From a virus (taxonomy: Duplodnaviria; Caudoviricetes): 64,000 nucleotides of DNA. The stretch covers positions 1 to 64,000 of IMG/VR virus record IMGVR_UViG_3300028591_000164; one strand, given 5' to 3'. Made by a program: the position numbers and the translations under genes. Below are positions 4,587 through 32,554 of this stretch, in pieces (position 1 is the stretch's first letter; each line of letters begins with the position of its first letter). The notes below the pieces were generated by a model. The model ran no database searches, was not told where the DNA came from, and saw only the letters and a program-made list of their open reading frames with translations.

Positions 4587-4609
4587 ATTATTTTAGGAGG
4601 GAATAAGTT

Positions 4610-5176: not shown

Positions 5177-5194
5177 TAAAGGAGGTGCGGACTT

Positions 5195-6262
5195 ATGAGT
5201 AATGATCTAAAAGTTTTAATGAACGGCGTATTTGGTCGTAAAGTACCTGCCGAGTTCGCGGCCGCCGATTATGACTATGAAGCTGCTCTACATGATGAGC
5301 TAGCTAAGCTATTATGCGATGAAAATGGTCGTCTAAATCGCTATAAGTTTGAGCGCAATAAGATTGACCTATTTGAACTACTTTCTCAGAATCTAGACGA
5401 GGTTCTTCCACAGAGCCTAACTGCTGCTCTAGATATGTTCACTGAAGTTGTTCGTGTTCCACAGGGCAGCCGTCCAGAGTTCCGTGTAACTCGCGGCAAG
5501 CAACGCGGCAAGCAGTTTGTTACCCGTGCTACCGAATCTGGTAACTATGAAACCTTCCGTCTTGATAGGGATCGTTTCGACATCTACATCTTCGCACTAG
5601 GCGGAGCTGGTCAGGTCGATTTCGAGCGCTATCTAGATGGCGTTGAGTCCATTCGTGACGTTTATGACGTAATTAATGAGGGCATGGTTGACCGCATTTT
5701 TGAACTAATTCAGGAAATGCTACTCTCCACTTGGAAGAAGATGCTACCTGCTAATAAGGTTCTTGGCAACAACTTCAATCCTGCCGCGATGAAGAAACTT
5801 TGCAACACTGTTTCTGCTTATGGTTCTCCAGTTATTTACTGCTCTGCTGCTTTCGCGGCGGACATGGTAAATGCTATTACCTATAACAACACCACAAAGA
5901 TTTCTGACCAGGATGTTATTGACATTCGTGAGCGTGGCTATGTTGGCAAGTTCCAGGGCGTTCCTGTTGTAATTATGCCACAGTCCTTCACTGATGAGAC
6001 CAATGAGAATCTAGTTATGAATCCTTCCTTTGCTTATGTTATTCCTACTGGCAAGGAAAAGATGATTAAACTAATCTTTGAAGGCAATTCTTATTTCCGT
6101 GAGTGGAATGACCATGAGGGCGATAATTCTATCACTCTACAGGCTTATACCAAGGTTGGTCTAGCTCTAGTTTCTCCTCTAAACTTCTGGGGTATTTATT
6201 ACAACAGCGCTTTAGATACAAACACCAACTGGGCCACTTATAATTATAATCTAACTCACTAA
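5195..6262 (+). CDS. Major capsid protein (355 aa)
   Basis: RBS AGGAGG; size and position; strongest codon bias in the window; followed by a terminator. Confidence 0.75.
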   Translation: MSNDLKVLMNGVFGRKVPAEFAAADYDYEAALHDELAKLLCDENGRLNRYKFERNKIDLFELLSQNLDEVLPQSLTAALDMFTEVVRVPQGSRPEFRVTRGKQRGKQFVTRATESGNYETFRLDRDRFDIYIFALGGAGQVDFERYLDGVESIRDVYDVINEGMVDRIFELIQEMLLSTWKKMLPANKVLGNNFNPAAMKKLCNTVSAYGSPVIYCSAAFAADMVNAITYNNTTKISDQDVIDIRERGYVGKFQGVPVVIMPQSFTDETNENLVMNPSFAYVIPTGKEKMIKLIFEGNSYFREWNDHEGDNSITLQAYTKVGLALVSPLNFWGIYYNSALDTNTNWATYNYNLTH

Positions 6263-10071: not shown

Positions 10072-11052
10072 ATGGCTGTAAATATTTTTGATAAATATGG
10101 CATTAAGGAAGTTGCGAATGTTTATTTTGAAGCTCTAGAAACAGATGAGAAAGCTGGCGTTTACAAGGGCGACATCGTTCTATTCCTTGATACTCTAAAG
10201 GTTTCTACCATTGAGACAACTGCTGAGAATACTGCTGCGCAGGGCGGCTGGGGCAATCCTAAGCTAGTTCAGTGGGACTATGGTAAGGAAATCAACATTA
10301 CTCTAGAAGATGCTCTAATGTCTCTTGAGTCCCTACGCTTCATGCTAGGTGGTGCTATTAAGAGAACCATTAGCGAGACCGAACCAATTATTGTTCGTCA
10401 TACTGAGGAAGTTGTACTTGGTACTGGTGGCAAAATGCCAAAGGTAACCGACCACTTAACCGGTATTGAAATGCATCCAAAGGCTACCTATGGTCATCCA
10501 ATTCGTCTAATTAATCTAACTGAAGGCACTCGTACTCAGCTAGAGCCCGCTTCTGCTGAAGCTGCTGCAATTGAAATTGGCAAGGACTCTGTTATTACTT
10601 TCAAGAATCCTAAGATGATTGATGGCGTGGGCAACTCCAAAGCTGGTGTTGCTGGCGATCACGTTCGTATTTTCTGGGAAGAGATTCTCGATGGTGAGAA
10701 TGATTCTGAGACCGCGGTTGAAGTAACCATTTCTCCTGATACTTTCCCTGGCACTTATAAGGTTGTTGGCGACACCTTCATGCGTTCTGAAAAGACCGGT
10801 AAGGACGAGCCATTCCAGTTCATTATTAATAAGGCCAAGGTTCAGAGCAATGTTACTATTACTCTACAGGCTGAAGGCGATCCTTCTACCTTTGAAATGA
10901 CTCTAAACGTTTTACGTTCTACTAACGAGCGCGGCGAGAATGAAATGATGAAGCTAGTTCGTTACAATGTTACTGGTGCAGAATCTGCTGATGCTGGTAA
11001 TGACATTGGTTCTGCCACTGCTCCTGAGAGTGGTTCTGGCGGAGGCAACTAA
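10072..11052 (+). CDS. Major tail tube protein (326 aa)
   Basis: RBS AGGAGG, capsid-like codon bias, followed by a terminator; AQGGWGNPKLVQWDYGKEINITLEDAL is tube-like; no TAG. Confidence 0.75.
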   Translation: MAVNIFDKYGIKEVANVYFEALETDEKAGVYKGDIVLFLDTLKVSTIETTAENTAAQGGWGNPKLVQWDYGKEINITLEDALMSLESLRFMLGGAIKRTISETEPIIVRHTEEVVLGTGGKMPKVTDHLTGIEMHPKATYGHPIRLINLTEGTRTQLEPASAEAAAIEIGKDSVITFKNPKMIDGVGNSKAGVAGDHVRIFWEEILDGENDSETAVEVTISPDTFPGTYKVVGDTFMRSEKTGKDEPFQFIINKAKVQSNVTITLQAEGDPSTFEMTLNVLRSTNERGENEMMKLVRYNVTGAESADAGNDIGSATAPESGSGGGN

Positions 11053-11068
11053 TAATTTATGATATAAT

Positions 11069-11106
11069 TAACTAGGGACAGTAAAGCTGTCCCTAGTTAT
11101 TTTTTT
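11069..11106 (+). terminator. Intrinsic terminator after tail tube gene
   Basis: TAACTAGGGACAG-TAAAG-CTGTCCCTAGTTA followed by a T run. Confidence 0.8.
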
Positions 11107-11122
11107 ATAGGCGGTGAGCCAT

Positions 11123-12034
11123 ATGATTGATTAGTATTCTGGTGTAAAAGAATTATATGAAGTTGTATTGCGCGCGAAAACGCCAATGCAATTTGGTTCT
11201 AGATATATAGAAGCCGAAGAACCAGTTTTATATTTTGAGAATATTAGTATGGCCCTTATTTCTGAAAAAAATAATACTATTATGGCGCGTGGTGGCTGGG
11301 CTAATATGCCACGAGTTATATGGGAAGATAGATCAGAAGTTAGTTTTACTATGTCAGAAGGTGTTATGTCCGCGATTAGTATGAGCATATTATTAAGCGC
11401 GAATGTGACGACATAGCGAGAAGATGAACCGCTTTATGTAAATAAGCGAGAAGGGCCATTTACATTAACAGAAAAAGCTTTTGTTGAGTTAGATGAAAAT
11501 GGAGAGGAAGTAGAAAAAGAACGTCATATTCTTAAACTTTCTCATTAGCCAATATATTATCCAACTAAAAAAATGTTTATTTTTGAATACGATCGTGATG
11601 TTGCGTAGAAAAAAGTTTATGGAAAAGAGTTGGGTAAAGATGAATTAGGAAACGTTTATATGGCAGTTTGTGAAGATAAAGAATTAAATATAAACGCGGA
11701 TATTAATAAAGAATACCTAGTGGATTACTACTATGAATATGGAAAGAAAGCGTTAATCTATGCTATATAGAAAGAACGCTTTAATGGATTATTCACTCTT
11801 GAGGGTAAGTTTTACTCCAAGGATGAAAACGAGGGCATTAATCGTACAAATATCTTGTACATGCCTAAGGTGAGAATTGTGAGCGATATTAATTTACGCT
11901 TGGGAGAAAGGGCTGATCCAACAGTATCGGTATTCAATATTATCGGTTTACCGGAAACGACTACCGATAAAAAGAACATGATTCTAGAAATCACTCGTTT
12001 AGACGAGGACATAGATGATGATGAATTAATTTGA
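11123..12034 (+). CDS. Second, paralogous tail-tube-like protein (303 aa, TAG=Gln)
   Basis: One frame through 5 TAGs to TGA; N- and C-terminal blocks align by eye with 10072-11052. Confidence 0.7.
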
Positions 12035-12074
12035 GCCATCCTTTAATGCGTAATTAAAGGGTGGCTCTTTTTTT
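12033..12074 (+). terminator. Intrinsic terminator before tape measure gene
   Basis: GAGCCATCCTTTAAT-GCGTA-ATTAAAGGGTGGCTC followed by T7. Confidence 0.7.
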
Positions 12075-12101: not shown

Positions 12102-15100
12102 ATGGCTAATGAACAGACTGTACGCATTCCAATAAATTTGGAAGTCGTTGATTCGTCTATAAAAAACATTTAGGATATTTTATCTAAAATGAAGCCAGAT
12201 ACAGCAGGCTTTAGACAATTATCTAAAATCTTAGATGAATTAGTTAAGTCTTCTGGAAAGGTTCAGACAGCTTTTGATCGCGGCTTTAGTTCTAATGCAG
12301 AATTGAAGGCGGCTGAAAAAGAGATTCGTACTATGGAAGGCGCGATGAGAAGTCTTGAATAGCTGAGTAAAAGTATTAGTTTTAAAGATTTAAAACTAGA
12401 TGCTAATTAGCAAAAAACTTTTGATGAATTAGAAAGAAAATTAAAAATAGCTCAATCACATTATAGTGATTTGGTAAAATCTTTTGATTCTAAGGATAAT
12501 GCGCAGGCTATTCAATTAATTGATAAAGATTTATCAAAAAAGAGTATTGAAGAAATTGAGAGTACACTTACCGCGGCTGTAAATCGAATGAAGGCTTAGC
12601 TTGCAGCATTACAAACCGCGACATAGGGTATTGGAGATAAGTTTAAAGATTTAAATGAGTCTAAAAAGAACGGTACTTATAAAACTGGAGATGCTTTAAA
12701 AAATATTTTAGGCGATGATATTTTTAATAAATTCTTTTAGACTAAGGGAAAAAATAATATTTTTAGTTTTAAGTCTTAGGGTGCAGGAACAATTGCTAAA
12801 GACGCATTTATTAATTATTTAAAAGATGCTTTTACCTTAACAGAAGAAGATATAAAGAAGATTCGTGATAGTAGTAATGCGGCAGATATTGAAAAGATTT
12901 TTTCTAACCAAGATACTGTAAAGGGTCTTTTTAAAGCTGGTAAACAGAATACACAAAATTATACTAATACTTATTCTTCTTTAGGAGAGCAGTTATAGCA
13001 AGTAAAAGCTGAAATGGGAACCGCTGGGGAAGATATGGAGAAATTTTAGGAGAATATGTTAAAAACCAGTGAAGCTTCTCCATAGCTAACCGCAGCTTTT
13101 GCTTCATTAATGGGTGTTTTACCTAATTTAAAAACTAATCTAGATGGTGCTGGTCAAAGCTTAGAGCGTTTTAGTAAATAGCAGCAAATGATTAGTAGTA
13201 TCAAGAGCATGGCCGACAGGTTCTTAGGATTATATTAGATTATTGGATATATTAAAAAAGGTTGGCATGAAATGACAACCACCATAAAAGAATTAGATAC
13301 AGTTATGAATGGTATTTCTATCGTAACTAAAATGTCTACTTCTGATTTATGGGATTAGGTGGATGTATATAGCGCAATGGCGCAAAAATATGGAACTTCT
13401 ATTAAGGGCGCTTATGAAGTTTCTCGTATTTATTATCAGCAAGGTTTGGAAACCAAAGATGTAATGACCTTAACAGAAGAAACATTAAAATTATCTAAAA
13501 TTTCTGGACTTGATTATGCGACAACAACTGACTACATGACAACTGCATTACGTGGCTTTAAGATGGAAATGCAAGACGCGGCTACGGTTGTAGACGTTTA
13601 TAGTAATTTGGCTGCCAATACAGCTGTATCATAGCAAGAACTTGCACAAGCTATGACACGTACAGCTTCTTCTATGGAATCTGTTGGTGCGACATTTGAA
13701 GAGACTTCTGCCATGATTGCTACAATGGTCGCGGTTACTCGTGAAAGTGCAAGCAATATTGGTAGCGCTATGAAATCTATTGCTTCTCGTTATGGTGAAT
13801 TGACTAAAGATCCTTCTAAATTAATTGATTCTGAAGGGGAAGAAATGAGTTTTAACAAGGTTGATGCTGCATTGAAATCTATTGGTATTTCTATGCAAAC
13901 TTCAGATCATCAATTTAGAGATTTCACTGACGTTATCCTTGAATTATCTGATGCTTGGAACACTTTAAGTTCTACGCAACAGCGTTATGTTGCCACACAA
14001 TTTGCTGGTAATAGATAGCAATCTCGTTTCTTAGCATTAGTTTCTAATGGATAGTTATTACGTGAAAATTTGGCTGTAGCGAATAATAGTGAAGATGTTG
14101 GTACTACATAGACATTAAAGGCGCTTGATAGTATTGAAACTAAAATTACGTAGGTAACTAATGCTTGGCAACAATTTTATTTGAATGTTGGATTAGAAGA
14201 TTTATGGAAAGGCGCATTAACTGGTATTACCAATATTTTAAATACATTAAATGAAATGCCGAAAGTATTCGGAAAATTACCAATTGCTGCAATTGGAGTG
14301 GTAACAAATGCTATTACTACAATTCGTTCTCTTATAAATATAGCTATTACAGATATTTCACGAACTGTAGTAAACGCTGCCCGTTCAACTGGAACAGAAG
14401 CATCTACTGCTATGGAGCAGGGAATACGGACAGGACAAGTAAAAATAACAAAAGCTTTTTCTGATGTATTTACTAATTTTAAATTAAATAAACAGCTTAG
14501 ATGGTCTTAGCTTAATCCAGAATCTTGGGAAGGGGTTGAAAATAGTGCCAGTAAAGTTGCCACAGCTATTGGAAGCGCAGCGTCTTTTGCTTCTTTGTTT
14601 GCTCTTTCATTAAACAATGGTACTGAATCTGCGAAAGCACTATCTGGTACTGTTAGTGCTTTAAGTGGAGCCGTATAGGCTGGCACTGGAATATTTTAGT
14701 TTTTTGCATTAAAAGATCCTCGCGGTATATTAAATATTTTTTCTGGAATTATGACATTCATAGGTGGTATAACAACCGCCATAGAGACTCCTGCCGAACG
14801 TTTAGAACGTTTAACAAAAGAGGCCGAAGAATTAAATAATACAGCAAAGCAATTAAAAACAGAAGAAAAAAATGCTGATAATTTAATTAAAAAATGGCAA
14901 CAATTAGAATAGACTTAGTATGACAGTGAAGAAGCCGCGAAAGAATTTTAGGAGGCTTCTAATAAATTAGCTGAAGCTTTCCCGCAATTAATATCTGGAT
15001 TTGACGAAGCTGGTAATGCTATTATTGATAGCAGCAATTTAGAGGGTGTTCTCGCAGCCGCTAGACGTAAAACTGCGGAAGCTACATTAGAAGCGGCTGA

Positions 15101-18100
15101 AGCCGAACGTAAAAAATAGAAAGAAAAAGTAGAATAGACTTAGAAAGATGTAGAAGAAAAAGCTAGGATATCAATCGCAAGTAATGGAGCTACAGCCAAA
15201 GCTGGAATGAGCGGATGGAGAAATTTAGGCTGGTATGAACTTTTAGATAATGAAGTTGTAATGGATAAAGTGGGAGCGGATGTTTTATCTATAGCAGCCA
15301 AAGAACAAGATGACTTATCTATGATTAGTCATATTGTTAAACAAGTAATAGCTGATGGCGCCTCTGGGGCTAATTTATCGTTAGCGGCTGGTGAAAACTT
15401 TTCTAGTTATCAAGCAGTTCAAGAATTCTATAAGACATTAAATGAAGAAGATCCGTTACGTATCATATTAGATTCTTACTTTAAATTTAATACTTAGGGA
15501 TTAGATACCATTTATAATTAGTATAAAGATGCTATAGAATAGAAAGACTATGCCACCGCCGCGCAATATGGTGAAAGTTTTATTAGTGCTTATTCTAAAG
15601 CAAGTGAATCATAGCAAGAATTATGGGAATTAGTTAATACGAATATTACTGATTTTGTTACGGAATATTAGGATCTTTTACAGACCGAATATGCTTTCGC
15701 ATCAGCGGAAAATTCCGTAATGAGGGCACAAATTGATTAGAAAATGGGCCTAAAGGCAACAGATTCTAAATATAATAATTTAATTAATTTAGTAACTGCT
15801 AATGCGAATAGATCATTTCATAATTAGAATAAATATAAAACTCCATAGGAATATATTGAATCATTAAGTCCAGCGGAAAGCCCAATAACTATTTTAAATA
15901 GTATTATTGACGATATGTCTGGTTGGAGTGAAACTCAATTTTCTACATTAAATACTGCGTTAAAAGATACTACTCATTATGGTAGTGTATCAGAATTACG
16001 ATCTATATTAGGAGAAGATTTTATCTTACCAGAGCAATTAGAAAATCAATTAAATGATTATTATACCGAAACAGCTCAAGAAGTACAAAAAACAGCAACT
16101 GCACAATTAAAATCATTAAAAACAAGTGATTCTAAAAATGCTCAATATTATTAGACATTGTTTGGAGAAGCAGGAGATCAAATTTCTACTGAATTTAATT
16201 CTTCTTTAGAATTAGGAATTGCTAATTAGTTAACAAAAGCAATAAAAGTTTTTCATACTGATGCTGATTTAGAAGAGATGGGTAATCTTGGCGCGACAAT
16301 AATTCAATACGCTGATTAGGTACCAATTGCTTTAGCAGATTCAATGAAGACGATGGGCTTTTCATCTGTGGAACAAATTGATAGTTATCTTACATAGCTA
16401 AAAACATTACGTGATAATGATCAAATTACAGATTAGACCTATACTGCATTAAGTCAAGCTTTAATAGACTTTAGAGAAAATTTAGTAAATAATCTCTCTT
16501 TAACAATTCAATCAACGATTAGTGGATTAGATAAATCTTTAGATACTGCAATCTCTGATATGGATAAGCTTCAATCTGGCATGGGATTTGAAGACGCAGC
16601 AAAAATGATTACTAAATTAAATGGATACCTTAAAGAAGGTGAAAAAAAATTTAATTTAGATACAGATTTTACTTTTGATGGTAAAAAATTCAGTATTACT
16701 GCGGACGCTTGGAACAGAGCTTATACTGCGATTTAGACCAATTTAACTGAACAAAAACAAAAGATTACAGATGATATTCAACAATATTCAATATTTGCAG
16801 ATAAGATAGCAGGAAAGGACCTTGATTGGCTTAATAGTGACAATTAGGCAGAAGATTTAAAACAATTCCGTACTCTCGCTGAGAATTTATTAGGAAAAGA
16901 TGTGGCGGCAGGATATTTTGGTGACGATGGTAAAATTAAAATAGAAACTGCTACTGAATTAGCTACTAAATTAACAAAAGCTGGTGCGACATTAGATGAA
17001 TAGTGGCAATCTTATGAAAATCGTTTAGCATATCTTGATGATTATAATGCACAAATACAATTAAGTTTCCAGCGTTAGGATACCGCATTTAAAAATTTAT
17101 TTAGTAATCCAAAAGATATATCAGTTGCGAATGTAGTAGAATTTGGTAAAAAATTTGATTTAGGTAAATCATATTCAGAAATAATAACAAGTGGTTTATT
17201 TACAATTACAAATGGTATTATTTCTATGTCTGCTTATTAGATGAAGCAAGCATTAGATGAACATGGCAAACAATTATCAGTTGAAAGTAGAAATAACTTA
17301 TAGGCAATGATTGATGCTCAATTTAAATCTGAACGTGGTTTTACTGCCGCGACCAATATTATGTCTAACTGGAGTGGCACTATTACTGATGATATGTTAC
17401 TTGCTTGGGCAAATGCTACTGGACAAGAGTTAAAAGATGTATAGAATTAGTTTATACAAGTTGGCGTTGGTAAGTGGGCCGGTGATGGAGATTTAAAGGC
17501 TTGGATTGAATCTAATGGATAGTAGTATAATCCAGATGCGGAGAAAACTTATGGTAAGTATTTAGAAACTTAGCGTAATGCAATTAACAGCACTTGGGAA
17601 TCTGTTATTAAGAGTCTTGACGGCGGTATATAGCGTATTGAAAAGAATATTAATACTGACGATTTCTTTGAAAAAAATAAACCATAGCTAGAAGCTTTTG
17701 GTATTAAAGTTTCTGAAGAATTTGGTTATTGGGTTATTGATGGCTTTGCAGGAAATACTGAATAGATTATAGAATATTTAAGTGAAGATAAGAACTTCCC
17801 GGATATGGACGCTAGTAAACGTGCGTCATTAATTGAATCGGTTACTAAAGGAAGTCTAGTCTCTGTTGTAAATTCAGTAGTTAAAAATGCTCAATCTGTT
17901 TCTGCTAGTACGGCTGAGTAGTTGGCTAAGATTTTATAGGTCGGCGATATTGCTGATTTAAAGGCATTGGGAGTAATTCATTGGGATGATAAAACTCAAA
18001 CTTATGTTGCCAATTTAAGTGAATTGTACAAGGTTCTTGGTGAAATGGAAAAGAATCTTGGTGATACATAGTAGAAAAATAATATAGAAGAATTACGTAA

Positions 18101-21100
18101 ACAAATTAAAGAAACATAGTTAGATACTTTGTCTACTGAAATTAAGTCCACAACAAGTGGCATTAAAGATGGTTTTAGTACTTATGCGGATGCCGCGGCA
18201 GTATTAAAAACTATGAATCAAAATGTACAAAAGACTGCCGATGGAAAATAGGTAGATTTAGAATTTAGTGATTTATTTGAATGGAATGCATAGTTAAATA
18301 AATATGTATATAGCTTAGATGGAATTGCTACTAGATTTTCTTATTTAAAGATTTAGCTTGATTAGGCAACTGCTGAACAAGATGTTAGTGAGATTGACCG
18401 CATTAATAAAGAAATAACCGCTTCATTAAAAGAAATTGGGCAATCGGTTGATTTAATGAAGGCGTTTTCTATTTCTGGTACAACCTAGGAGCAAGCAAAA
18501 GCTAGATAGGATATTGCTAATGAAGTTGATAAATATAATGCCGCGGCTTCTTAGATTGAAGGTGCGAAAGTTATTTCACAAGACTTATTAAATTTAGCTC
18601 TTGATGGTAGTATTTTTGCTTTAGATACTATATATACAACATTGGGTCAAACATTAACGGCTGAGAACGTGAAGACAGTTCGTGCTGCTAAATCATCTAA
18701 GATAAAGACAGCTGCTGAAGCGCTTAATGCTGGCGTTGGAACTGTAATTGATTAGACAACAAGAGAATTAATTGGAAGTGCTGCTAATTTTTAGTCTATC
18801 GGTGCAGGAATGAGTGTTATTACTTATATTAAGGACCTTGAACAAGCACAATATAATTTATATAATGCTTTAAAAGAAACAAATCAAGCAACTGCACAAG
18901 AATTAAATGAAGCGGCATTAAGAGTACTACAAGCTCGTTATCAATCTGAAGATACTGGTTTAAGCTTATTATAGAATGGCGCGAGCATGAGTATTGAATA
19001 GTTTGCCGGTTTTATGGAAAAATTAGGATTACAAATTGGTGATCTTGATAATTTTATAAGCACTGCTAATGATTATATTGAACGTATTGGTGGATCTAAC
19101 ATTAGAATCTATGATATGGTTGGTTTGTTAAGTAAGTATGGTTTAAGCCCAGATAGTTCTGAATTAGGTAGACAATATTATAGCGCTTGGTTAGATTCTA
19201 TAATTTCCGCGGGCAATAAAGCTAAAGAGGATGCATTAAAAGTAATTACTACTTTATAGTCTGCTTCTGGTGGCGATTAGATTAATGCTTTCGGTATTAC
19301 TCGTTTAACTATTACTGACGAATTAGAAGCATAGTTAAATGAATTTGGTGCTATATTTGAAAATGGTATGATTACTCTTGCAAAAAATGCAGATATACCT
19401 AGTATCATTAGTCTATTATTACAATATGCTCAAAATAAAGATTTAATTAGTGCCGATGACGCGGCGGAAGCGGTTGCAAAAACTATTACTAAAGATTAGG
19501 CAGCAACAACATTAGCATAGAATTATAATAAAGCTTCTATGGAAATGTTGAAAAATTTTGCGCGTGCAACTGGTATTGGATTAGAGCGTGTAGTGGCGAT
19601 ATTTAAGGATAATGGCAATGGCACATATAGTGGAGAAATTCCATTAGAAGATTTTGTTGAATTAATGGGATTAAAAGATACAACCGCAGGAAAGGAAATT
19701 TTACGTGCTTATGCTGAATCTTAGCGTAACGTATTAAGTAATTTTGTTTCTACCAGTATAACATCCATTACAAAAGGTACATAGAGAATTGCGATTACAG
19801 ATGAAAATCGTGAACTTCTTGTTAAATTAGCTGAAAAATATGGCGGTTATATGGAAGAAGGTGTTGGTGAATACTTAATTACTGTTACAGAAGAAACTGC
19901 TGGTGGTTTTATTGAATCTATTTTAAATGATCCTGATTTAACTTCATATGAGAAAGGCGAAGCCGTTACTTAGGTTAGAAATGGTTTAAAATAGACCGGA
20001 TTACATAATCTACTTACTACAATGGCTTCTAATTATGAAGATATTCCATTTAATATACTAAATTCAGTTGCAGATTAGTTGGGTATAGGCGTTGAGCAAT
20101 TATATGCTGAAAACGGACCTGTCAAATTTAATGGAGCAACTTAGAAATATTCTACTTCACTTCAAGATTTATATCATTTTACTGAATAGTTATTAGATGA
20201 AGGTTCTATTAGTATTGATACCGCTAGTGCTGTATTTAAATAGATTGACGATGCATTTGGTAATTTAACTCCAGAAAAACTATTTGGTACTTTTATATCT
20301 AGTAATGGCTCTATAACAAATGAAGTAATTACTACATTTGTTGAAGGATGGAATAAAATTGCTGATGATTATTCTAAAATCGCTGCAGAAGATATTAGTC
20401 AGTTCGTAGTGGATGGAGAAATAGATACATCTACTATATTAGGATTAATGGAAACATTTTAGGTTGAGATGGATGAAACCATTGCTAAATAGTTAAAGAC
20501 TAAATTTGATTCTTATGTGACTGAAGTAAATGGTTTAGCATCTGAAATAACAGGTGGTTTTACCGACGTCGCTAAAATGGGAACTATTTTAAAACAAGTC
20601 AATAGAAGATTTAGCCGTTCAGATGGTTCAGCATTAGAATTTGATGATTTATTTGAATACAATGAAGAATTAAATAAATATGTTTATACCAGCACTGGTG
20701 TGGTAACTCGTATTCGTTCATTAAAACTTGGTTTAAGTGAAATTGCTGTTGGAACTAAAGAATATGATGAAGCATTGGTCAATTTTGATTTGGCAATGAA
20801 GCAATTCGGAATTTAGTTACATGAAATAGGCAATAATATTGATTTAATGAGTATTGCTACAGCGGCTCCTGGATCAATTGAATTATAGAAAGCGGTTGAA
20901 AAGGCGCAAAGTGATTTATAGACATATAATACAGTCGCGGCAGAATTAGGTGAGACATTAATTGGGTCATTTAATTTTGATTAGCTTGCAGAGGGTGGTC
21001 TTGCCGCGGTTTAGTTAATGCAAGCTTTATATGAGAGTCTTGGTCGTGAGTTATCTACTGATGAAATTAAAAAGGTTTATCAGGGAGAAGTTAATAATTT

Positions 21101-24100
21101 ATTTTCTGCTATGGAAAATCTTTAGAAAGTAACCAAAGGCGGATTAATAGATAAAACTACTTATGAATTAGGTTAGACAGCTGGATTATTAACTGCTACA
21201 GAAATTGGTAATACTGGCATTTATGAAGTTACTTCTGTTGCTTATGAAAATTTAGCATAGGCTTATCAGAATTTATATTCTTCCTTAAAGGCAAGTGGAG
21301 AAGCAACCGCAGAATAGTTAAATTAGATTGCTTTAAAGATTTGGGGCAGTTATGGTTCTAAAGAATAGACAATTATTAGTTCTTTAAGTTCAGCAACAGG
21401 TATGACTTTTGAGCAATTTGGTACTATGCTTACTGAGTTAGGCATTGAGCTTACTGATAATACTATTGGAGAATATGCTGAGTATTTAACTTCCGTTGGT
21501 GGAAATAAATTAGTTATTTCTGATTTTAAGGGATTGATGGATAAACTTGGTTTTGATTCTACTTCAGAAGAATATCAAAAAGCATATAGTCAATATATTA
21601 CATCATTAATTTCTTGGAATAATGAAGCAAATAGTAGAGTTGAAACCGCGATTTCAAATTTACAAAATGCTAAAGTTGGAGATTAGATTAATGTTTATGA
21701 TCTAGTTGGCGATTTAGAGATAAGTAATGAAGAGTTAGGCTATAGTATTAAAAATGGCATTTTAACAATTACTAAAGGAATGAATATTCCTGAAATAATT
21801 ACTGCTGTTTTAGCTACTGCTGATACTAAAATAACTGCTGATTAGAAATATTTAGCAGAACGTATGGCGAACGAATCTAGCATACAATAGCTTTGGTTAG
21901 ATATTGGTAAAACTTATGATTCTGTATCATTTGATTTAATTAAAAAGTTAGCTTAGGCTATGGGTGCCACGATTGAAAGTGTTGAAACTACTTTCTTTAC
22001 AAAAAATGCTGATGGCAGTTATGCTGGTAAATATAATATTCAAGATATATTTACATAGTATGGTGTCGATTTAAATTCTCCGGCTGCGCAAGAAGTTTTA
22101 CGTTTATAGATGCAAAATTATAGAGAGGCTGTTGATTCTGTTATTCAAAATGGATTAAATTCTATATCTAATGGAACATAGAGAATTACTAAAAATGCAC
22201 AAACTGAAGCTATTTTTAATGCCGCAATTCAAGAGGGTACAACTTGGATACAAGAGGGCATTGGAGAATATTTAATTAATATAACTAAAGATAATATAAC
22301 ACAATTTGAAGACTTTATTAATAGACAAACAACATTAACAATTAAGTAGAAATCTAATTATCTTGCTCAGGCTCATTAGAATATTGCTGATTAGAATATT
22401 TCTAAAGTATTAAGCAGTATTGTTGGAAATGTTAATTAGGTATCTTACTAGACGGCGAGTGAGTTAGCATTATTATTAGGTAAAGATCTTGAAGAATTAA
22501 CTACTACAATTTCTAGTGGAATTTTTAGTACATCTTCACAAGGAATTTTTAGTAAGTTTAATGAAGATACTCAAAGTTTTGAATTAGATGTAATTGCTTT
22601 TACTGAATGGATTAATACTTATCAAAAGGAATTAGGTATTAGTAGTGCTACTTTAAAGCAATTAAATAGTCAATTAAAACAATATAGTGCTAACGAAGTA
22701 ATTAAGACATTTATTACTAATAGTAGTAATATTACTGATGATATGATTACAAATCTATCTAATATTACTAATTTTAGTGAATAGTAGATTAAAGACCAAA
22801 TATTGAGAAAAGAAGCGGGGCAATATAGGCTATCTTCTAAAGCTGCTTTGCAATTGGCTTAGTTATTTGGTGATGAAGAAAATGGTTTATTAGAAATTTG
22901 GAAAAATACATATTTAGACAATATTTTTAATGGTATTTCTAGTATAGGTGGTAATGTTTTTACTACTTCTTTTGATTATAATGGGTTAAAATAGTTAGTA
23001 TAGGATATTTAGGATTGGACTGGACAAACATTTGATATTTCGCAATTAGCTTCTTATAATTCATAGCTATAGCAATTTGTATTATCTCAAGAAGGTGTTT
23101 TTGCTAAAATTCAATTAGCGCGCGAACAATTAAAGGCAGCGGGAATGGATAGTGATTTAATTGATGATCAAATATAGAGTATGATTGATCAATTTGGTAA
23201 ATCTATAGATTTCTCTAAAGCATTTGATTTTAAAGCAATTGATGCTTCAAGCCAGAAACGTAATATGGCGCAATTGAATGCCAACGCTCAAGCTTATTAT
23301 GAAATGTTATATGCCGCGGGTAATTGGTCAGAGGCTAGTTTATTTAGATATAATTATGAAACTATGTTACAAGGTGGTTAGGCGGGATTAAATGCTGCTT
23401 ATAAAGTATATGAATAGACGGGTCAAGAATTGACTGCTGATATTGCTAAAAAAATATTATAGGCCCCAGTTCAAAAATTATTAGACGGTAAATCTGCGCT
23501 TGATAGTAAAGTTGGAGATGTAATTAGTTCTGAAGCAGCGGCATTAGGTGTCGCCGCGGGTTATTTAGAAGTTAATGAAACTGTTGATGGTTTGGCTCAA
23601 GTAATTAAGATTAATAAAGATAATCTTGATAATGCGTTATGGGCCTATCTTGATGGTATTCAATAGCAAATTGCTAATGGCGTAGAGGGATTAACAGAGG
23701 AATCTAATAATACAATAGTATCTATTTGGGAAGAACGTGCTAAAAAAGATTCTTCTGTTATTAATGCTTTTGATAAAGCTATGGGAATGACTTATAAAGA
23801 GTTTGGTGATATGGCAACAGAAGCTGGCTATACATTAACTGTTGGCTTACTAGACTAGTTTATAGGTGAAGGTATATTAGAAGATATTGGCAATGGAAAG
23901 GTTCGTATTTTAGACTTTGATAAATTTGCTGAAAAAATGGGATATACCGATACTAATTCTGAAGCATATAAAGAAGCAAGAAGTAAATATCGTGATTCAA
24001 TTATTTAGCTAAATAGTCAAACTCGTGATGATGTTTTAAAGAATATTAATGCTGTAAAAGATGCTAAAATTGGTGATTAGATTAATATTTCTGATATTAC

Positions 24101-27100
24101 TGATTTATTAGGTGATGGTTTAACTAATTTCTTAACAGCAGAACTTTAGGAATATGGTGGCGTTCTAGATAATGGTATATTAACTATTTAGGAAGGAGCC
24201 AATATTTATGGTTTGGCTACTAGACTTGCACAAGTGGCATAGGCAAAAGGAGCTATTTTAGAGAATGATGTTGTTGCCCTTGGAGACGCATTATAGACTG
24301 CTGTTAGTTAGTATGTTGATGTTATTACAAAAGCATTGAGTGGCGGTTTAAAAGGTGGAGATTAGAAACAATTAATTGATTTTGCTAAAAATTTTAATAT
24401 TGAATTAGGCGCTGATGACTTTGTTGAAACGGCCAATGGAATGAAATTAACTATTGACGCTGCGATAGAATTATATAACACTTTAAAATCAATTAAAGGT
24501 ATAGATACTTCTTCCTTGTTCTCTGGTCTTAAGGATGCTATAATAAAACGAGATTAGATTACTACAATGGACGGCATTATGGCGAAAATTGCGTCTATTA
24601 ATAATCAAATAGCAGCACAAAAAGCCGCGACTGGAAGCGTTAATGCGGAACTAGAACGAGAATTAGAATTGTATAAAGAAATTGCTAATGAAGCAATGAT
24701 GAATGATCCTAATAAATATAAATTTATGGATCAAGCATTACCAGATAAATTTTAGGGTCCATTAAATTATTGGGATGCAACAGAAAAAATGATGTAGACC
24801 ATGATTTCAAGTGCTAAGAGTGGCTACATGGGCGTACAAGATTTTTATAATATTGCCACCGAAATGGAAAACCTTGCTAAATTGTCTGGTAAAACCATGA
24901 GTTTTATGGGCGTTGAAATTGGTGAAGGTGCAATGACCGCGGCTGAATTAGTAGAAAAAGGTTTTTCTAATTTAAAAGAAGTCAGTGGTAAAGGTGCTTA
25001 GATCAACCTTAAAGGATTGGCCGATATTGGATTAAATCTAGCTATGAGTTCTAAACAAATGGCCGAGGGCGTAGAAGATGGCATTCATGCTATGGCCCAA
25101 TCTCAAGTTGATATGCTTGACGGTTTAATTGGTTTACTTGAGGCAATTGTTGCTATGGAAGCTATTAGTGATGTTGACACTAATGGAGATCATACCTTAG
25201 ATGTCAGTGAAATTTTTGAGGTTGAGGGCGAAGATAAATTAAGCGAAAAAATGACTAGTTTTGCTAGCAAATTATTGGAAGATATTGAGAAAAGTGAAGA
25301 ACTAAAAAAAGAGTTTGAAGCTTTGAAGATTGGTCAATATAGTCTTTATGAAATTATTAAAGATGCTGCTAGTGGCACAAAAGGTATTAAAATGGCAACA
25401 GAAGAATATACTAATCTTTGGAATGCCTTATATCAAACCGCATTAGACCAAGATTTTGATGCTTCTGATTTAATAGGAATAGTATAGCAGCTTTATAAAA
25501 ATGGTTTAAAAGATATAGAATATACATTAAAAGATGGCCGTAAAATGGTTATAAAAAATGGTCATATTTTAGTATAGACCGAAGATAAAGAATGGGTTAC
25601 AGATGATGGTGAAAAATTTTCTAGTGCAGATGCTGCTATTGCCCATATGGTAAAATTAGAAAGTAAAAAAGAAATTGAAGATTTTAATAAAGGAAAAGAA
25701 TCTAAAGGCGTAACTATTGATGCTAATGGTGAAACCGAAATTACCATCAATGGGCAAATATATAAATTACATGTTAATACTAATGAAGATGGTTCGTTCT
25801 CTATGGATGGTGTTGAAGGTAGTTTCAAAACTCCTATAGAATTACTTAGAGCATGGGTGCGACAAACTTTTAAAGATACTAAATTTGCCAATGGATTAAC
25901 GCCAAATGATTATACTGATGAACAATTAGATATTATAATGGGATTCAAAGTAGTACCAAAAATTACAGGGACATATCAATTAGCGGAAGATTAGCGTAAA
26001 AAACTTCGTGAATTATTAAATGAAAAAGGTATAACTACTAAAGAAGGATTTATTTAGAATAAAGAAGCATTATCTTTAGAATTAGGAGTAGAACTTGATG
26101 ATGACTTATTTAGTAGTGATGAAGCTTTATAGTTGTTTGCTGGTGTTTAGGTAACTGAAGCTGATACAAGTCAATTGGAAGATGTTCATGTTTAGGGTAT
26201 TGTTGATATAATTTCTGTTGAGGGGCTGGATAAAAAAGTTAAAGAATCCGTCGCTTTGGCATTATAGAATAATGAAACTTTCGCTTAGATGGATGAGCGA
26301 ATGCGCGCAGAAGGTGCCACAGAAACATAGCGCTTATAGGCAATAGAAACACTCACAAAAGTCCCAGGACGAACTCTAACGAGAAATGATATAGAGGCTT
26401 TATAGTTAAATGGTAATAATATTCTTCCATTATTAGGAGCTTCGGGAGCGTTTAATGGTGGCTATTCAACGGAATGGTATACTAGTCGAAGTCTTGATCC
26501 AACAATTGGCATGGGATTAAAATATACTTATGATGACAGAACTAAAACTTATGGTATTTATAGAAAAGATATAGAAGCAGAAATAAGTGCTCATCAAGGC
26601 TATTATGATTAGCTTGGCGTGACAGCTGATAATTTTGTTGACTTTGTAAATTATTTTCAAGGTACACATATAGAAGATATGTTACGAACGATTCCAGGCT
26701 TTTCTACTCGTTTTTGGGGGACTCCATTATTTGATTTTGCTAAAAAAATGGGATAGTAGCAGAAAAAAGAAAAAGCTGAAAAAGAAGGCATAAGCATTGG
26801 TAATTTAGAGGAACAGAAATATGATTTTAATAAAAGGAGCGTAATATTAGCACAAACAAATGCGGCTGAACTTGCGGCAAATAACTCTGCTTAGGTTGCA
26901 ACAGATAAAATTATGAATGAATATGCATAGATTGTTGCTAAAGTCGAAAGAGAGCGTGATTTAGTACGTACAGATGCTGGCGGTAATTTTAATGGATATA
27001 CTGATGAAGATTATTAGTCTTTTTTAGACAGCATTCATGAATCTAATGCATATAAGAAGGCCCAAGAATTAGGCCATAATAGTGTAATAGAAGAGCAAGC

Positions 27101-30100
27101 TCGTCAAGCTGCATTAGCCTCTTAGACCAATAAATCTGATGAAGGTGAATATAGATATCTTCATGGGCAGTATTTAAAACAATTTACTGATGAATGGTTC
27201 GCTGGATTCCAAGAAGATTAGAATAAAAATAAACCATTAACTGATACAGAAAAAAATGCTCAATCCGCGAATACGATGTCCACTGCAGCCGCTACTTTCC
27301 AATCTGCTGTTGCATCATTTGGCGCGGCTGTTTAGTCAATGATTATTGGAACTGTAGCAAATTAGCTTAATGGTAAAGATAATGTTGACGAAATAGAGCA
27401 AATTTTAACAGCTTTTGGTATGAATACAAATCAGCAAATAGAAGCAATAAAAAATACTAATTTAATTACAAATCAAAATACTCTTGATGCTCTTAACAGA
27501 TATGAAGAAGAAAAAGCAGAAGCGGCTGGCAAAGAATTCGTAAGTACATTTTTAAATGGAAAATCAATGAATGAAGTCGGTTTGCAAACTTTAATAAGTT
27601 TATCTGAAGCACTAACAACAAAATCAGAACAAGTAAAGGATAGTGATCCTTTTTTATCTAAACATTTACTTGAATTACAAACATAGGCAGAGAGTGCAAA
27701 AGATTTAGCTTTGCGAGAAGCTCGAAGAGAAGCAAATGCTCAAATAACTTCAACAACTCATGGGCCTACTACAAATACTACAAAAGAAAAAAGATTTGAT
27801 CAAGTAAATTCGAGTTTAATAGATCATGGTTTAACTGAATCTATAATAGCTTAGAGCCAAGCCAAAAATCAATTTATAATGGCAGAAACATAGTTGATAG
27901 AATAGCTTCAATAGTCTGCGGATAAAAGAACAAAATTTGCTGAATTTTCTAAAAATTGGGGCTCTTATCTTTAGGAACCAGAAAAAATGTTTAATGATAA
28001 TATAGACTAGCAAAATAAATTTACTTAGGGTTATAATGAAATATTTAATACTAATCTTTCTTTTTCTGATGCTTTAGATTAGGCTTAGGAGCAAATAAAA
28101 GCTTTAAGTGAAACTCCAATTGAATTGACACCAGAAGCAAATCTTGCCCAAGTATTAAGTTCCTTAGAATCAGTTAAGAATATTAATGGTACTATTACTT
28201 ATACTAGTGTTATTAATAATTCTGCTAGAAATACTCAAAACATTACTCCCTAGGCCAAAGGTAATGTAGCCCTTGCTTCAGGTACTCGCACATTAATGGG
28301 CGAACTTGGCCCAGAACTTGTAGTTTCTAATGGTCAATATTTCCTTGCTGGACAAAATGGTGCAGAATTTGTTGATTTAGCAAAAGATGCAATTGTATTT
28401 AATCATATCCAGACTAAACGCTTATTATCTAATGGTTCAAGCGGACGTGGCACGCCATTAACTAATGAACGTAATGCTACTTCAATGGCAACTGGTAATG
28501 TACATGGTCCCGCTATGGCATCTGCTAGTTCTGTACTTTCTACATTAAAACAACTTCGTGCACAATGGCAAGCATTAGCTGATTTAAGTATTGCTGACCT
28601 CGCCGGTAAAGGCGGCGGAGGCGGCGGAGGAAATAAACAAATCCCTGGTTTTATCCGCGATGTTGAACGTTGGTACAATTGGTTGCAGAAGATTGCTGAT
28701 CTTGAAAAAGAAATTACTTATCAAGAACAACTTCGTAATAAAATTCAATCTGATATGATTTCTAATGGTAAAGCATATTATGCTAGTTAGAAGCAATCAT
28801 ATGAAGATATGAGACTATCTGCTATTACCAGTGAATCACTTTACTTGTCTCAAAAAGATTATTTTGAACAGCGTCGTGAATAGCTTAATAGTAAGGATTC
28901 TCCATTAAGTACTTTATATACATTTGATGAAAGCGGTCAGTTACATTTCCAAGAAGGAGCATATCAATGGTTAGCTGATTTGTTTAAGGCTGATGATTAT
29001 GGTCATTAGACATTATCTCCAAAACAACAGTATGAAATGATTTTGGCTAAGAACCCACAATTTGCTTAGTTCATGAAATATGATAGTTCTGGTAAAGAGA
29101 TTATCAGAAAAGACTATAAGAGCGATGATGAATACTATCTCGCTATGGTTAAAGCTTTCTCTGAGCGTATGGATTCGGAAAAAGAAGAAATGTAGGAATT
29201 ATTTGATTCTCTACATGAGCAAGAACAAAAAGTACTTGAATAGATGTAGGCTATGAATGAATAGCTACAGGCTATGAAAGATAATCAAAAAGAAGTTGAA
29301 GAATCAGTCTTAAAGGCTATTGAAGAATCCCGTCAACGTTAGATTGATGAGATGAAAGACACTAAGGAAGCTATTCAAAAGACTAATGAGGACTTTATTG
29401 ACGGTTTAAATAAGTCTCTTGAAAAAGAGCGTCAAATGTATGAAGATACGCAGAAAGATTAGGAATTAGAGCGTAATCGTAGATAGCTTGCAATTCTAAA
29501 ACGTTCTGGCGCGTCTGCTTCATAGATTGCTCAATTACAGGAGAAAGTTGATCAAGAGGCACGCGATTAGTACTTTGATAAGCAACAAGAGCAGATTGAT
29601 GCGGTTAAAGAAGCATCCGATTTATAGCTTGAAAAAATGGACTTACAAATCGAACTTGCACAAGAGCAACTAGATTATGAAAAAGCGCATGGATTGCTTT
29701 GGGGTCAAGTTTATGATATAATGACAAAATCACCAGCAGAAATTGCTCAGTACATAAAAGATAATACGGCTGATTTTTGGAGCTATTCTCCGCTCAATAG
29801 TTCAGAAAAAGCAAATGAGATTCTTTTCAAAGCCGAGCAATGGGCGGAATTCCGTGATGATATTGACATGCAAAAAGCTTCATTGGGCATGATTAACTAG
29901 AATTTAGACATTTTCTTGGCTGCTATGAAAGAAATTCATGGCAAAGATACTAATTGGGATAAAATTGAAGAAACTGCAAAAACAAAATATGAAGCTTTAT
30001 TTGGTGGAAATTTTGATGATCCAGGAAAAACTGCTTGGGAGGCTTATTAGAGCGCGACTGAATATGCGACTAAGCCGCCTAAAACAGAAACTACAACTAC

Positions 30101-30764
30101 TACAACAACAACTGGTACTGGTTCTGGCAGTGGTAGGACTGGCTTGGAAAATAAATGGTACTATGATAATGAAAAGCACTGGAAGCGTAATTGGCACAAT
30201 GGTAAATGGTCTAGAGCAAACGAAGGAGCACATAATTGGACAGTTTTAAATTCCAGTAGTAGACATTTAACTAGATAGTGTACAGTTTGCCATTTAAAAC
30301 GCACAGATAGCGCAAGTCCTGAACCTCAATATTCTATGCCTGAAACTTCAACATAGAAACCACCAGTTTATGACCATCAAATGTCTTAGCCAAAAATAGA
30401 AGTTGGTTATTATTCTAATGGAGGAATTAATAATTAGACTGGACCTGCAATTTTACATGGTACTCCAACAGATCCAGAAGGAATTTTAAATGCCGATGAT
30501 TATAGAGCTTGGAAAGAAGATATAAAAACAACTAACTTATTATATAACGCATTAGCTGATGTCTCAGCATTATAGCATAGCGCGGCCGCGGCGGCAAGTT
30601 CTACAACAAACAATAACAGTGGTATTGTTATTGAACATGCCGAAGTGAGCATGAATGCTACAATAGCTAATGATTACGATGCACGTCGTGCCGGTGAACA
30701 AGCATTAGAGCAAATGCTTACAATCGCTCGTAAATCTGGTACTCGTAGTGCTCAAAGGAGGTAA
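12102..30764 (+). CDS. Giant tape measure protein (~6,220 aa, TAG=Gln)
   Basis: RBS AAGGAG and ATG 12102. All 16 same-frame track fragments between 13359 and 29900 end in TAG, and I saw no TAA/TGA in the stretches translated. TMP core at ~13300-14200 (AQKYGTSIKGAYEV, TRESASNIGSAMKSI); TMP-type motifs MGELGPELVVS and GPAILHGTPTDPEGILN; stop TAA 30762-30764. Confidence 0.82.
17350..24250 (+). repeat. Three diverged tandem copies of a ~720-800-aa module within the TMP (edges approximate)
   Basis: GDQIN at 19272/21678/24072; QRI at 17631/19782/22179; LFE(W/Y)N..LNKYVY at ~18270 and ~20645; EG(V/I)GEYLI in copies 2 and 3. Confidence 0.75.
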
Positions 30765-30769
30765 AAGGA

Positions 30770-32554
30770 ATGAGAGATTATGGATATGTAAATGGGAACG
30801 TTATAGACGTTCCCAATTATTCAGATACAAAATATACGCAAGTATATATGGCAACACATAAGGGGGAAGGCGCGGCATCGCGCCTTCCCTTCATGGAGCG
30901 TTCATTTATAAGCTTTACTTTTGGTGGAAAAAGTATAGAAGATTTTAATTTAATTGCTACTATTAGCGGCGATAGGATGGAACGTTCGGGTTATTCTACT
31001 TTTGAAGATTTAACATCAGAATACGAAGTACTAGATGGCCATTTTTATTGGGGCACACATTATACTAATCATGAACTGACATTTGATTTAGCTACTGACG
31101 CGATTACATAGAATGAGTTAGATCATTTTTTACATTGGTTTCAACCAGGTAAAATTCGTGAATTAATATTATCTGAGCATCCGAATCGCGCGATTGAAGC
31201 GCGCGTTAGCGCGGCGCCAGAATTACATTTACTTCCTTTTGAAGAAAAAGTTACTAAAAAAATTGGCGATTAGGAATATAAAACTAGCACTACATTATAT
31301 AAAGGTGAAATTACTTTAACATTTGTAATGGAAGAGCCATATTGGTATTCAAAAATTAATATTTTTGGTTATTATAATAAAGATACTGGCGTTTTTCATG
31401 ATGTTTGGACAGACGCAAATGGTAAAGAAGTAAGTATTTTTAATGACCCAGATGCTATTAAAATTGCTTTGGAAGATAATATTCCTATCGCTAGTATGAT
31501 TGATGCTTCTATGTTATTGGGTGATAATACTTTTGCTGATGCAGATACAAGTAAAGATGCGATGACGGCTGATATAGAAATTGATGAAAATATAAAATAT
31601 ATAGAACTTACAGACGAAAATAATGAAACATATTATGAATTAGATTATGAAAGTATGGGTGGCACACAAGAAGCAATTGACGCATTGATTCCACCTAATT
31701 CTCGTATAGCTATTACAGAATTTGATGGCGGCGAAGAAAAATGGATTTATGGCGCGCGCCTGTCTGGTGCAGTTATGAGTGAAAGTTCCGGCATAGAAAA
31801 TTTTGCTGAAAATGAAAGCCAATATTTTTATTATGCTGGTAATGCTCCATCTCATCCTACAATTGAATTTACTTTAACTCCTACATTTGATGAAAATGGT
31901 TATATAAATAGTCCAAAGAACAGTTATGCTGAAGGAACGCCGTATAATACAATTACGTTTGAAAGTTTAACTAAGAAAGAGCTTTAGTTTACTACTCCAA
32001 GCATATATACTGGTTATAATCAAGTTATAAAAATTTTACATGATGCTCCAAGTACAACAGCGTGGGTAGATATAAGAAAACAGATTCGTAATAATGTAAA
32101 TCACGCCGCTGCGCGCGCATGGGCAAATAAGGTTATTGATAGCTTTGATACTTCAACAATAGGTGGAAATCGTTAGTATGCATTAGATCGCATGAAATAC
32201 TTTTTATTAGATCAAAATGGTAATGCACTTCCTTCGCGCTTTATTATTAATAGTAAAACTGGTCGCGCGATAGGTGAAATTAAATATCGTGTACCAGATA
32301 ATCAAGAAACAATTACAAGTGAAGGATGGGCTACTTATAAAGCTGATTCTTTAACTGTACATGAAGAAGATGTTGGAGATATGATCCGGTCCAATTACTT
32401 GATTATAGAAGATTAGAATTAGCCGCGGGATGGGAAAATTGTTGCTTGGAGCAACGTTTCGGAAAATACAAGATTGAATTCACATGTTGTGCGACACGAT
32501 GTTTCTGGCGGCTTAAAAAATGTATTTATTAAATACTAGAATATGTATCTATAA
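30770..32554 (+). CDS. Distal tail (Dit-like) protein with large insertion (594 aa, TAG=Gln)
   Basis: Follows the TMP; N-terminal SFTFGGKSIEDF...WFQPGKIRELILSEHPNR is Dit-like; one frame to TAA. Confidence 0.65.

Follow-up and report, generated by a model that had tools for sequence, protein, structure and literature searches.

A 6,220-residue tape measure protein gene in a TAG-recoded sheep gut phage, and the very long tail that it predicts

The tape measure gene and its surroundings

We describe here a giant tape measure protein (TMP) gene in a tailed phage (Caudoviricetes) from sheep gut metagenomes. The window, by which we mean the whole 64,000-nt stretch of DNA analysed, is the first 64 kb of the linear, 81,947-bp IMG/VR record IMGVR_UViG_3300028591_000164, which CheckV judges to be 47% complete; the full genome size is estimated at ~175 kb. 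When TAG is read as glutamine (translation table 15), positions 12102 to 30764 of the plus strand form one frame that encodes a 6,220-amino-acid (aa) protein with a terminal TAA, and this protein carries the TMP domain PF10145 and matches phrog_4211. The frame contains 188 TAG codons, no TGA and a single TAA, which is the stop itself; its table-15 translation is thus free of internal TAA and TGA, as the initial annotation had expected. Since the remaining five frames over the same interval hold between 87 and 778 TAA and TGA codons apiece, the openness of this frame is far beyond chance. It is by a wide margin the longest open reading frame (ORF) of the window, and a Shine-Dalgarno motif, AAGGAG, lies 11 nt upstream of its ATG at 12102. 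Under the standard code (table 11) the interval yields only short ORFs, of which just two reach 150 aa (156 and 164 aa), bearing out the proposal that a single long frame is hidden here by recoding. The related proposal that code-11 annotation misses such genes is correct for this record, for which the public gene calls render the TMP gene as 33-115-aa pieces. Most relatives are already whole in public protein sets. Gene calls made with code 11 and still retained for IMG/VR records conceal the largest structural gene of such phages.

Read support was assessed in the Logan assembly of the probable source run and in runs of other studies. A 17,835-bp Logan contig spans 14021-30900 and a 1,901-bp contig spans 11900-13796, each with zero differences. 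An RNA-library run from another study (X2) contributes eight exact contigs scattered over the gene, which show that the sequence is present in a second study and are no proof of transcription. Strains in two further studies are 5-8% diverged over the gene, the differences being mostly transitions, and their indels leave the frame intact, being either an insertion of 3 nt or +1/-1 pairs that offset each other within a few bases. DNA repeats inside the gene are short and diverged (at best 85% identity over 41 nt and 72% over 92 nt), making collapse or expansion by the assembler unlikely. Read-layout 'joints' that were short on one side (21-27 letters) were taken to be noise from other organisms. 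The reads therefore uphold the assembly, with independent contigs exact and diverged strains preserving the frame. Hints as to the host exist at the binning level only: one contig of a metagenome-assembled genome was binned as Acutalibacteraceae, and a 2.4-kb contig as Methanobrevibacter.

The identification of the gene as that of a TMP, as first annotated, is supported by PF10145, phrog_4211 and synteny. The PF10145 (PhageMin_Tail) core domain occupies aa 426-636 (13377-14009, plus strand; E 1.2e-31, 110.6 bits against a cut-off of 33.2), and 12 TMP PHROGs match, the best being phrog_4211 over aa 16-1488 (E 1e-61). Two hydrophobic, transmembrane-like segments follow at aa 819-837 and 876-894 (14556-14783, plus strand; Kyte-Doolittle scores of 1.69 and 1.71 in a 19-residue window). 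The gene lies between tube and distal-tail-protein (Dit)-like genes and is the longest of the tail block, and its product is mostly helical in moderate-confidence models, has hydrophobic segments and contains internal repeats. Pfam reveals no lytic transglycosylase, peptidase, intein or lysin domain in the protein. No RNA polymerase family matches it in Pfam or PHROGs, and its N-terminus fits ordinary TMP families from aa 16.

The genes upstream of the TMP gene are, in order, terminase, portal, scaffold-like, capsid-like, connectors, tube and a tube paralogue. The tail tube protein (10072-11052, plus strand) is YomU_Tube-like, has no TAG codon and is 70% identical to the product of a gene with a PF27173 match in a relative (locus L001). 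The paralogue directly 5' of the TMP gene (11114-12034, plus strand) matches phrog_2729 and is 57% identical to L001 9132-9938. Downstream, a Dit-like gene (30770-32554, plus strand; a weak phrog_33 match, 3.3e-5, syntenic in relatives) starts 5 nt past the TMP stop, and is followed by a gene for a 1,796-aa protein (32576-37966, plus strand) that we assign as a tail tip or fibre protein by its position and its homology to a 2,614-aa L001 gene. The neighbouring genes of relatives, which are 46-74% identical to those of the window, belong to the Pfam families YonD_N, YonB, YomW, YomV_2nd and YomU_Tube (PF27173, PF27211 and PF27256 are present) and are arranged as YonD/YonB/YomW/YomV/YomU_Tube, TMP, a ~590-aa gene and a giant tail protein. 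Two strong terminator-like hairpins with T runs stand on the plus strand after the tube gene (11069-11099, 14-pair stem) and after the paralogue just before the TMP gene (12033-12067, 15-pair stem). These are likely attenuators that set the tube-to-TMP ratio, and fit the large excess of tube over TMP that a very long tail needs.

No sheath family is found among the structural genes, which form a contiguous block from terminase to tail fibre, in agreement with the initial annotation. Alignments spanning 84-93% of the window tube protein show 30-37% identity to its counterparts in phages Tsamsa, Kirov, WRP3 and Sundance (the last infecting Brevibacillus), and the tails of Tsamsa and of the Lactococcus 949 group are non-contractile by electron microscopy (EM) (PMC3903500, PMC3888941). 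A contractile tail, or a virion that is not that of a siphovirus, would void any ruler arithmetic derived from flexible tails. With only 47% of the genome in hand and several structural genes lacking an annotated function, such a virion retains some room, but in view of the sheath-free block and the EM-characterized tube homologues we consider it highly improbable.

TAG as a glutamine codon

TAG makes up 44% of the glutamine codons of the TMP gene (3.0 per 100 aa) and 45-47% of those in the two tail genes downstream of it. The scaffold-like and capsid-like genes (3345-6262, plus strand) and the tube gene have zero TAG, and the minus-strand replication genes are nearly TAG-free. The scaffold-like, capsid-like and tube products are the most abundant virion proteins, and their lack of TAG shows recoding that is graded by gene and not merely divided between early and late.

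Six relatives that use table 11 allow the meaning of the codon to be read from alignments. Glutamine is the commonest residue opposite the TAG codons of the window (17.5% of 572 columns, 2.8 times background). The next most enriched residues are Glu, Lys and Arg, and there is no enrichment of Ser, Leu or Tyr. The residue profile opposite TAG also matches that opposite the window's CAA and CAG codons, and a smaller tally agrees. By this comparative evidence the code is one in which TAG is read as glutamine, with TAA and TGA as the sole stops.

Neither a suppressor tRNA nor a release factor is found in the 47%-complete fragment. Complete relatives of 166-190 kb have 19-28 tRNA genes, which are clustered, and one of them (G006, 182,655 bp) encodes a tRNA with a CUA anticodon (L116:158-243). 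This 86-nt tRNA has a long variable arm, a shape unusual for a glutamine tRNA, and is labelled 'Pyl' by ARAGORN. In the closest complete relative (G002), none of the 17 clustered tRNAs has a CUA anticodon. We infer that the machinery of the code switch is probably encoded by the half of the genome that the record lacks.

These data bear on whether the frame gives rise to one protein at all. An assembly chimera, a decaying gene, or TAG codons that still terminate would leave only fragments, as might be suspected from the scraps seen under code 11 and from the lack of a suppressor tRNA in the fragment. Against this stand the absence of any internal TAA or TGA from 6,220 codons when other frames have up to hundreds, the exact independent contigs, and the maintenance of the frame in diverged strains. 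Furthermore, 24 IMG/VR relatives have TMP frames of 3.7-6.2 kaa (thousand amino acids) that carry 23-195 TAG codons, standard-code homologues place glutamine opposite the TAGs, and complete relative G006 has its CUA tRNA. Taken together, these observations leave very little probability that the gene is anything other than intact.

Three features of the minus strand are of separate note. The anaerobic ribonucleotide reductase gene nrdD (42989-45259) has two TAG codons (aa 211 and 217) within the TAG-poor replication block; comparison of these sites with solved NrdD structures is ambiguous, with Gln in one homologue and otherwise Met, Glu or Ala. The highest TAG density of the window, at 12 TAG codons or 3.9 per 100 aa, is found in a GIY-YIG homing-endonuclease-like ORF (40776-41708). 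The DNA polymerase coding sequence is interrupted, its two ORFs (49834-51546 and 46551-48809) flanking a third of 252 aa (48831-49589).

Architecture and relatives of the protein

All but ~700 of the TMP residues are homologous to the TMPs of relatives. The parts shared across the family are the N-terminal 1,020 residues, aa ~4000-4480, and aa 5330-5920 and 6100-6220. The middle of the protein contains three tandem copies of a ~790-aa module (~2,400 residues in all), which are detected by self-BLASTP and a hidden Markov model (HMM) and are 21-32% identical to one another (25-32% in the self-BLASTP alignments that define copy 1). Copy 1 covers aa 2004-2798 (18111-20495), copy 2 aa 2799-3600 (20496-22901) and copy 3 aa 3601-4397 (22902-25292), all on the plus strand, and faint DNA repeats with a spacing of 2,376-2,397 nt run across them, a spacing that also helps to delimit copy 1. 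They are preceded by a degenerate partial copy of the second half of the module at aa 1690-1975 (17169-18026, plus strand), which aligns to HMM positions 416-692 and, by BLASTP, as 1749-1976 against 2467-2691. According to the module HMM, the closest relatives (such as G002, with a 5,369-aa TMP) have two full copies, many others have a single one and some have none, and three copies are seen only in the window protein. Since internal repeats of other kinds occur in further giants of the family, duplication is, on the sequences compared, the general route to length in this TMP family. The idea that the triplication is later than the recoding gained no support either way, with 3, 3 and 1 TAG codons shared between copies where 3.6, 3.3 and 1.0 are expected.

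Between the modules and the C-terminal region lies an orphan segment of ~700 residues (aa ~4501-5206; 25602-27719, plus strand) with no detectable relative. It is not aligned by any of 265 relatives, no shorter protein in a set of 5.8 billion sequences matches it bar the record's own scraps, and neither a PDB chain (by sequence search) nor either of the family profiles matches it. The segment is coding and is retained in diverged strains. The conserved C-terminal region that follows (aa 5330-6220; 28089-30761, plus strand) matches 1,506 proteins. Near its end are the only two cysteines among the 6,220 residues (aa 6060 and 6063; 30279-30290, plus strand), which form a His-flanked CxxC motif within a small predicted beta domain (pLDDT 77-88; predicted local distance difference test), a region that is not conserved in relatives.

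We modelled module copy 2 and the C-terminal 891 residues with AlphaFold2. The module model (10-sequence alignment; mean pLDDT 58) is 64% helix and 7% strand. Helices are combined with short strands in residues 20-270, at pLDDT 75-88, and the second half is helical and of low confidence. The C-terminal model (27 sequences; mean pLDDT 66) has long helices at pLDDT 80-93, one of them of 109 residues, and terminal helices, together with a beta element at GELGPEL (aa 5400) and the small beta domain around the two cysteines. The two models together cover 1,693 residues and are 58-64% helix. Foldseek finds nothing in the PDB under E 1e-3 for either model, and a BFVD search returns only weak, long-helical matches labelled 'minor tail/TMP' with template-modelling scores of ~0.1. 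The modelled parts thus give no sign of an enzyme, and part of each module may fold compactly.

Relatives of the protein are numerous. With the first 5,000 residues as query we found 15 relatives of 3,467-6,390 aa. The N-terminal core retrieves no fewer than 547 clusters, all of 3,421 aa or longer, some of the relatives being standard-code, and the C-terminal region retrieves 1,506 representative proteins at E<=1e-3, the best 150 of which are mostly 2,500-4,700 aa. The TMP of the Thermus phages P74-26 and P23-45 is 5,002 aa (PMC10770324), close to the size assumed when the comparison with P74-26 was originally made, and provides a yardstick: among 265 fetched relatives, 44 exceed it and one is longer than 6,220 aa. 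A close tube protein is present in 91 IMG/VR contigs, for 29 of which the exact TMP frame was read. These 29 TMPs range from 3,714 to 6,244 aa with a median of 5,227 aa, and 17 exceed 5,002 aa. The recoded members number 24, with 23-195 amber codons each, and the other five use the standard code, as do six of eight relatives that we checked through their contigs. The occurrence of standard-code giants implies that giant size is no by-product of recoding. The longest of the 29, at 6,244 aa, comes from a complete 172-kb genome with terminal repeats (G023). The initial suggestion that the gene is exceptional must accordingly be dropped as regards its lineage, in which TMPs reach 6,390 and 6,244 aa. 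From the sequences gathered, giant TMPs are the rule in this uncultured clade, and the window gene is an extreme member, not a unique one. Three further searches gave no match, namely a near-identity DNA search and a tblastn search with the C-terminal region, both of 50,697 phage records, and a single-protein scan of IMG/VR with one module.

One relative (G001, IMGVR_UViG_3300021431_000109; loci L015 and L099) has a tube protein 100% identical to that of the window alongside a 5,746-aa TMP that is only 27-69% identical to the window TMP. This combination indicates that change in the TMP, by evolution or exchange, far outpaces that in the tube, through either a mosaic boundary between tube and TMP genes or very fast TMP evolution. 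Some TMPs of the family have extra domains in precomputed Pfam annotations, comprising Hint/intein domains (P0005, P0167, P0176, P0219), peptidoglycan-binding domains (P0174, P0177, P0036) and choline-binding repeats (P0218, P0245), which hints at Gram-positive hosts and at TMPs acting as domain carriers.

Predicted tail length and comparison with known systems

The principle that TMP length sets tail length rests on mutants of lambda and TP901-1 and on work with TM4. By analogy with the model developed for lambda gpH, TP901-1 and TM4, a few copies of the window TMP would be stretched inside the tube, with the conserved C-terminus docked in a tip complex with the Dit-like and tip proteins. Polymerization of the tube would halt at the N-terminal end of the TMP, whose length would thereby set that of the tail. 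On infection the phage would expel the TMP, the two hydrophobic segments of which would enter the membrane and help to form a conduit.

We calibrated this ruler on cultured phages, of which Tsamsa and the 949 group have homologous tubes and Hotorobo is unrelated. Tsamsa has a 3,123-aa TMP and a 440-nm tail (PMC3903500), equivalent to 0.141 nm per residue. The 949 group gives 0.144-0.150 nm per residue from the 3,334-aa TMP of WRP3 and tails of 480-500 nm (PMC3888941), the tail lengths having been taken on 949 and phiL47 and not on WRP3. Gordonia phage Hotorobo, with a 3,327-aa TMP (9,984 bp) and a ~540-nm tail (PMC4982279), gives 0.162 nm per residue. Applying the resulting 0.14-0.16 nm per residue to 6,220 residues yields 0.88-1.0 µm. 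It is therefore reasonable to predict a flexible, non-contractile tail of ~0.88-1.0 µm, which would match or exceed the P74-26 record. Overall, we put at roughly 0.7 the probability that this is the intact TMP gene of a TAG=Gln siphovirus of the sheep gut or rumen, with a structural module of the SPbeta/Tsamsa/949 type, and that its length sets a tail of this size.

Several observations weigh against this interpretation. It extrapolates a tail length to twice that in any cultured relative. Neither a suppressor tRNA nor a release factor was found in the fragment, and G002 lacks a CUA tRNA in its cluster. The first ~430 residues of the module are modelled with moderate confidence as a mixed helix/strand fold and not as a plain coiled coil, and could pack more residues per nanometre. 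The orphan segment fails to align in any of the relatives, and the giant TMP of P23-45 has an N-terminal part that is an RNA polymerase (PMC10770324). Part-folded modules and the orphan segment may thus leave room for a shorter tail. This possibility can be put more generally, as a genuine TMP of which a large share is not ruler, being taken up by folded modules, the orphan segment or a cleaved C-terminal part that serve as cargo or are compact, with a tail of ~0.5-0.7 µm like those of many relatives. The pLDDT values of 75-88 for helices and short strands at module residues 20-270, the orphan segment without a homologue, the RNA polymerase of P23-45, and the peptidoglycan-binding, choline-binding or intein domains held by the TMPs of some relatives are all compatible with such an arrangement. 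However, in cultured relatives with TMPs of 3.1-3.3 kaa the whole length scales with the tail, at 0.14-0.15 nm per residue (PMC3903500, PMC3888941), and the TM4 tail becomes shorter by ~20 nm, in line with prediction, when a 114-aa enzymatic motif is deleted from the TMP of that phage (PMC1796659). In addition, the 1,700 modelled residues contain no enzyme or known globular fold, nor do Pfam or PHROGs detect one, and TMP length in the clade shifts by whole modules, as that of a ruler would. We therefore regard a substantially shorter tail as unlikely, and favor the reading in which the full length of the protein acts as ruler.

The amber codons would impose a stringent demand on the synthesis of such a ruler. 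If each codon is read through with probability p, a fraction p^188 of the chains reaches full length, which amounts to 50% at 99.6% read-through, 15% at 99% and 0.007% at 95%. Since all 188 TAG codons have to be read through, full-length TMP would appear only after the code switch is essentially complete. Products that end early would be without the C-terminal anchor, are not expected to initiate tails, and should be harmless. By our own inference, this arithmetic fits the published proposal of late genes gated by recoding (10.1101/2021.08.26.457843). No more demanding test of recoding efficiency is known than this gene, whose single polypeptide spans 188 amber codons.

What is of interest here is less the uniqueness of a single gene than the record tails predicted across a clade and a ruler that evolves fast and stepwise. 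We think the chances are about even that a widespread, uncultured rumen and gut clade with genomes of ~165-190 kb routinely makes tails 0.7-1.0 µm long, longer than those of any other virus, and that their length is a fast-evolving, selected trait stepped by large TMP modules. Identical tubes combined with TMPs that are ~475 residues (~70 nm) apart and 27-69% identical are what would make tail length fast-evolving and selected. Provided that tail length does follow the ruler rule, the tails of this phage and of dozens of its relatives would rival or surpass the longest recorded for a virus, with an ordinary mesophilic gut as the setting in place of a hot spring. This raises the questions of how a ~0.9 µm tube is assembled without error and then maintained, and what is gained by micron reach, for which access to hosts through capsule, mucus or biofilm was offered as speculation in the initial annotation. 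The clade constitutes a natural series of TMPs of 3.7-6.4 kaa, some on near-identical tail genes, and is suited to an extreme test of the ruler rule. The literature that we searched contained no account of TMPs exceeding 5,002 aa or of tail lengths for this clade, and our searches for rumen EM reports turned up none of micron-long tails.

The gene order and tube of the window place it close to several cultured phages. Bacillus prophage SPbeta supplies the Pfam names of the relatives' structural module (YonD, YonB, YomW, YomV, YomU), and its TMP core is 24-26% identical to that of the window; its TMP, YomI, has a lytic transglycosylase, whereas none is detected in the window TMP. We take YomI to be 2,285 aa long, which would make the window TMP ~2.7 times longer. 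The Bacillus phage vB_BanS-Tsamsa (169 kb) and the Kirov, Izhevsk and Thrax phages resemble the window phage in tube sequence (35-37% identity), genome size and structural gene order, but the TMP of Tsamsa is half as long and its code is standard. The Lactococcus 949 group (949, phiL47, WRP3) likewise shares the tube (30-34% identity) and a long, TMP-scaled tail (PMC3888941), and differs in its shorter TMP, standard code and dairy or plant hosts. Both 949 and phiL47, like Tsamsa, have long, flexible, non-contractile tails by EM (PMC3888941, PMC3903500). At 3.3 kaa and 0.16 nm per residue, the Gordonia phages Hotorobo, Monty and Woes likewise obey the length rule (PMC4982279); they are unrelated actinophages with the standard code.

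TMPs of ~3,150 aa characterize the nearest described groups (phAss-1, PMC10607447). The phAss-1 group comprises TAG-recoded human-gut phages of 136 kb with TMPs of 3,149-3,209 aa (PMC10607447) and, by description, shares with the window phage the recoding of late genes, a comparison with SPbeta and a TMP that is broken by TAG under code 11; its TMP, again compared by description only, is half as long as that of the window. The window phage possibly belongs to the 'Agate' clade of Borges et al., to which genome size, Firmicutes hosts and code mix provide a lead (10.1101/2021.08.26.457843).

The closest parallel in size is provided by the Thermus phages P74-26 and P23-45, whose tail of 0.8 to nearly 1 µm has been called the longest known virus tail (PMC10034513, PMC10770324, 10.1101/2022.12.01.518664). 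They share with the window phage a giant TMP that goes with an extremely long, flexible tail, predicted from genes in our case. No sequence relation to them was found, however, and the N-terminal part of the Thermus TMP is an RNA polymerase, where the window protein matches ordinary TMP families (aa 16-1488). The window TMP is 24% longer than its Thermus counterpart, is encoded by a TAG-recoded gene, and belongs to a phage of the mesophilic, anaerobic gut.

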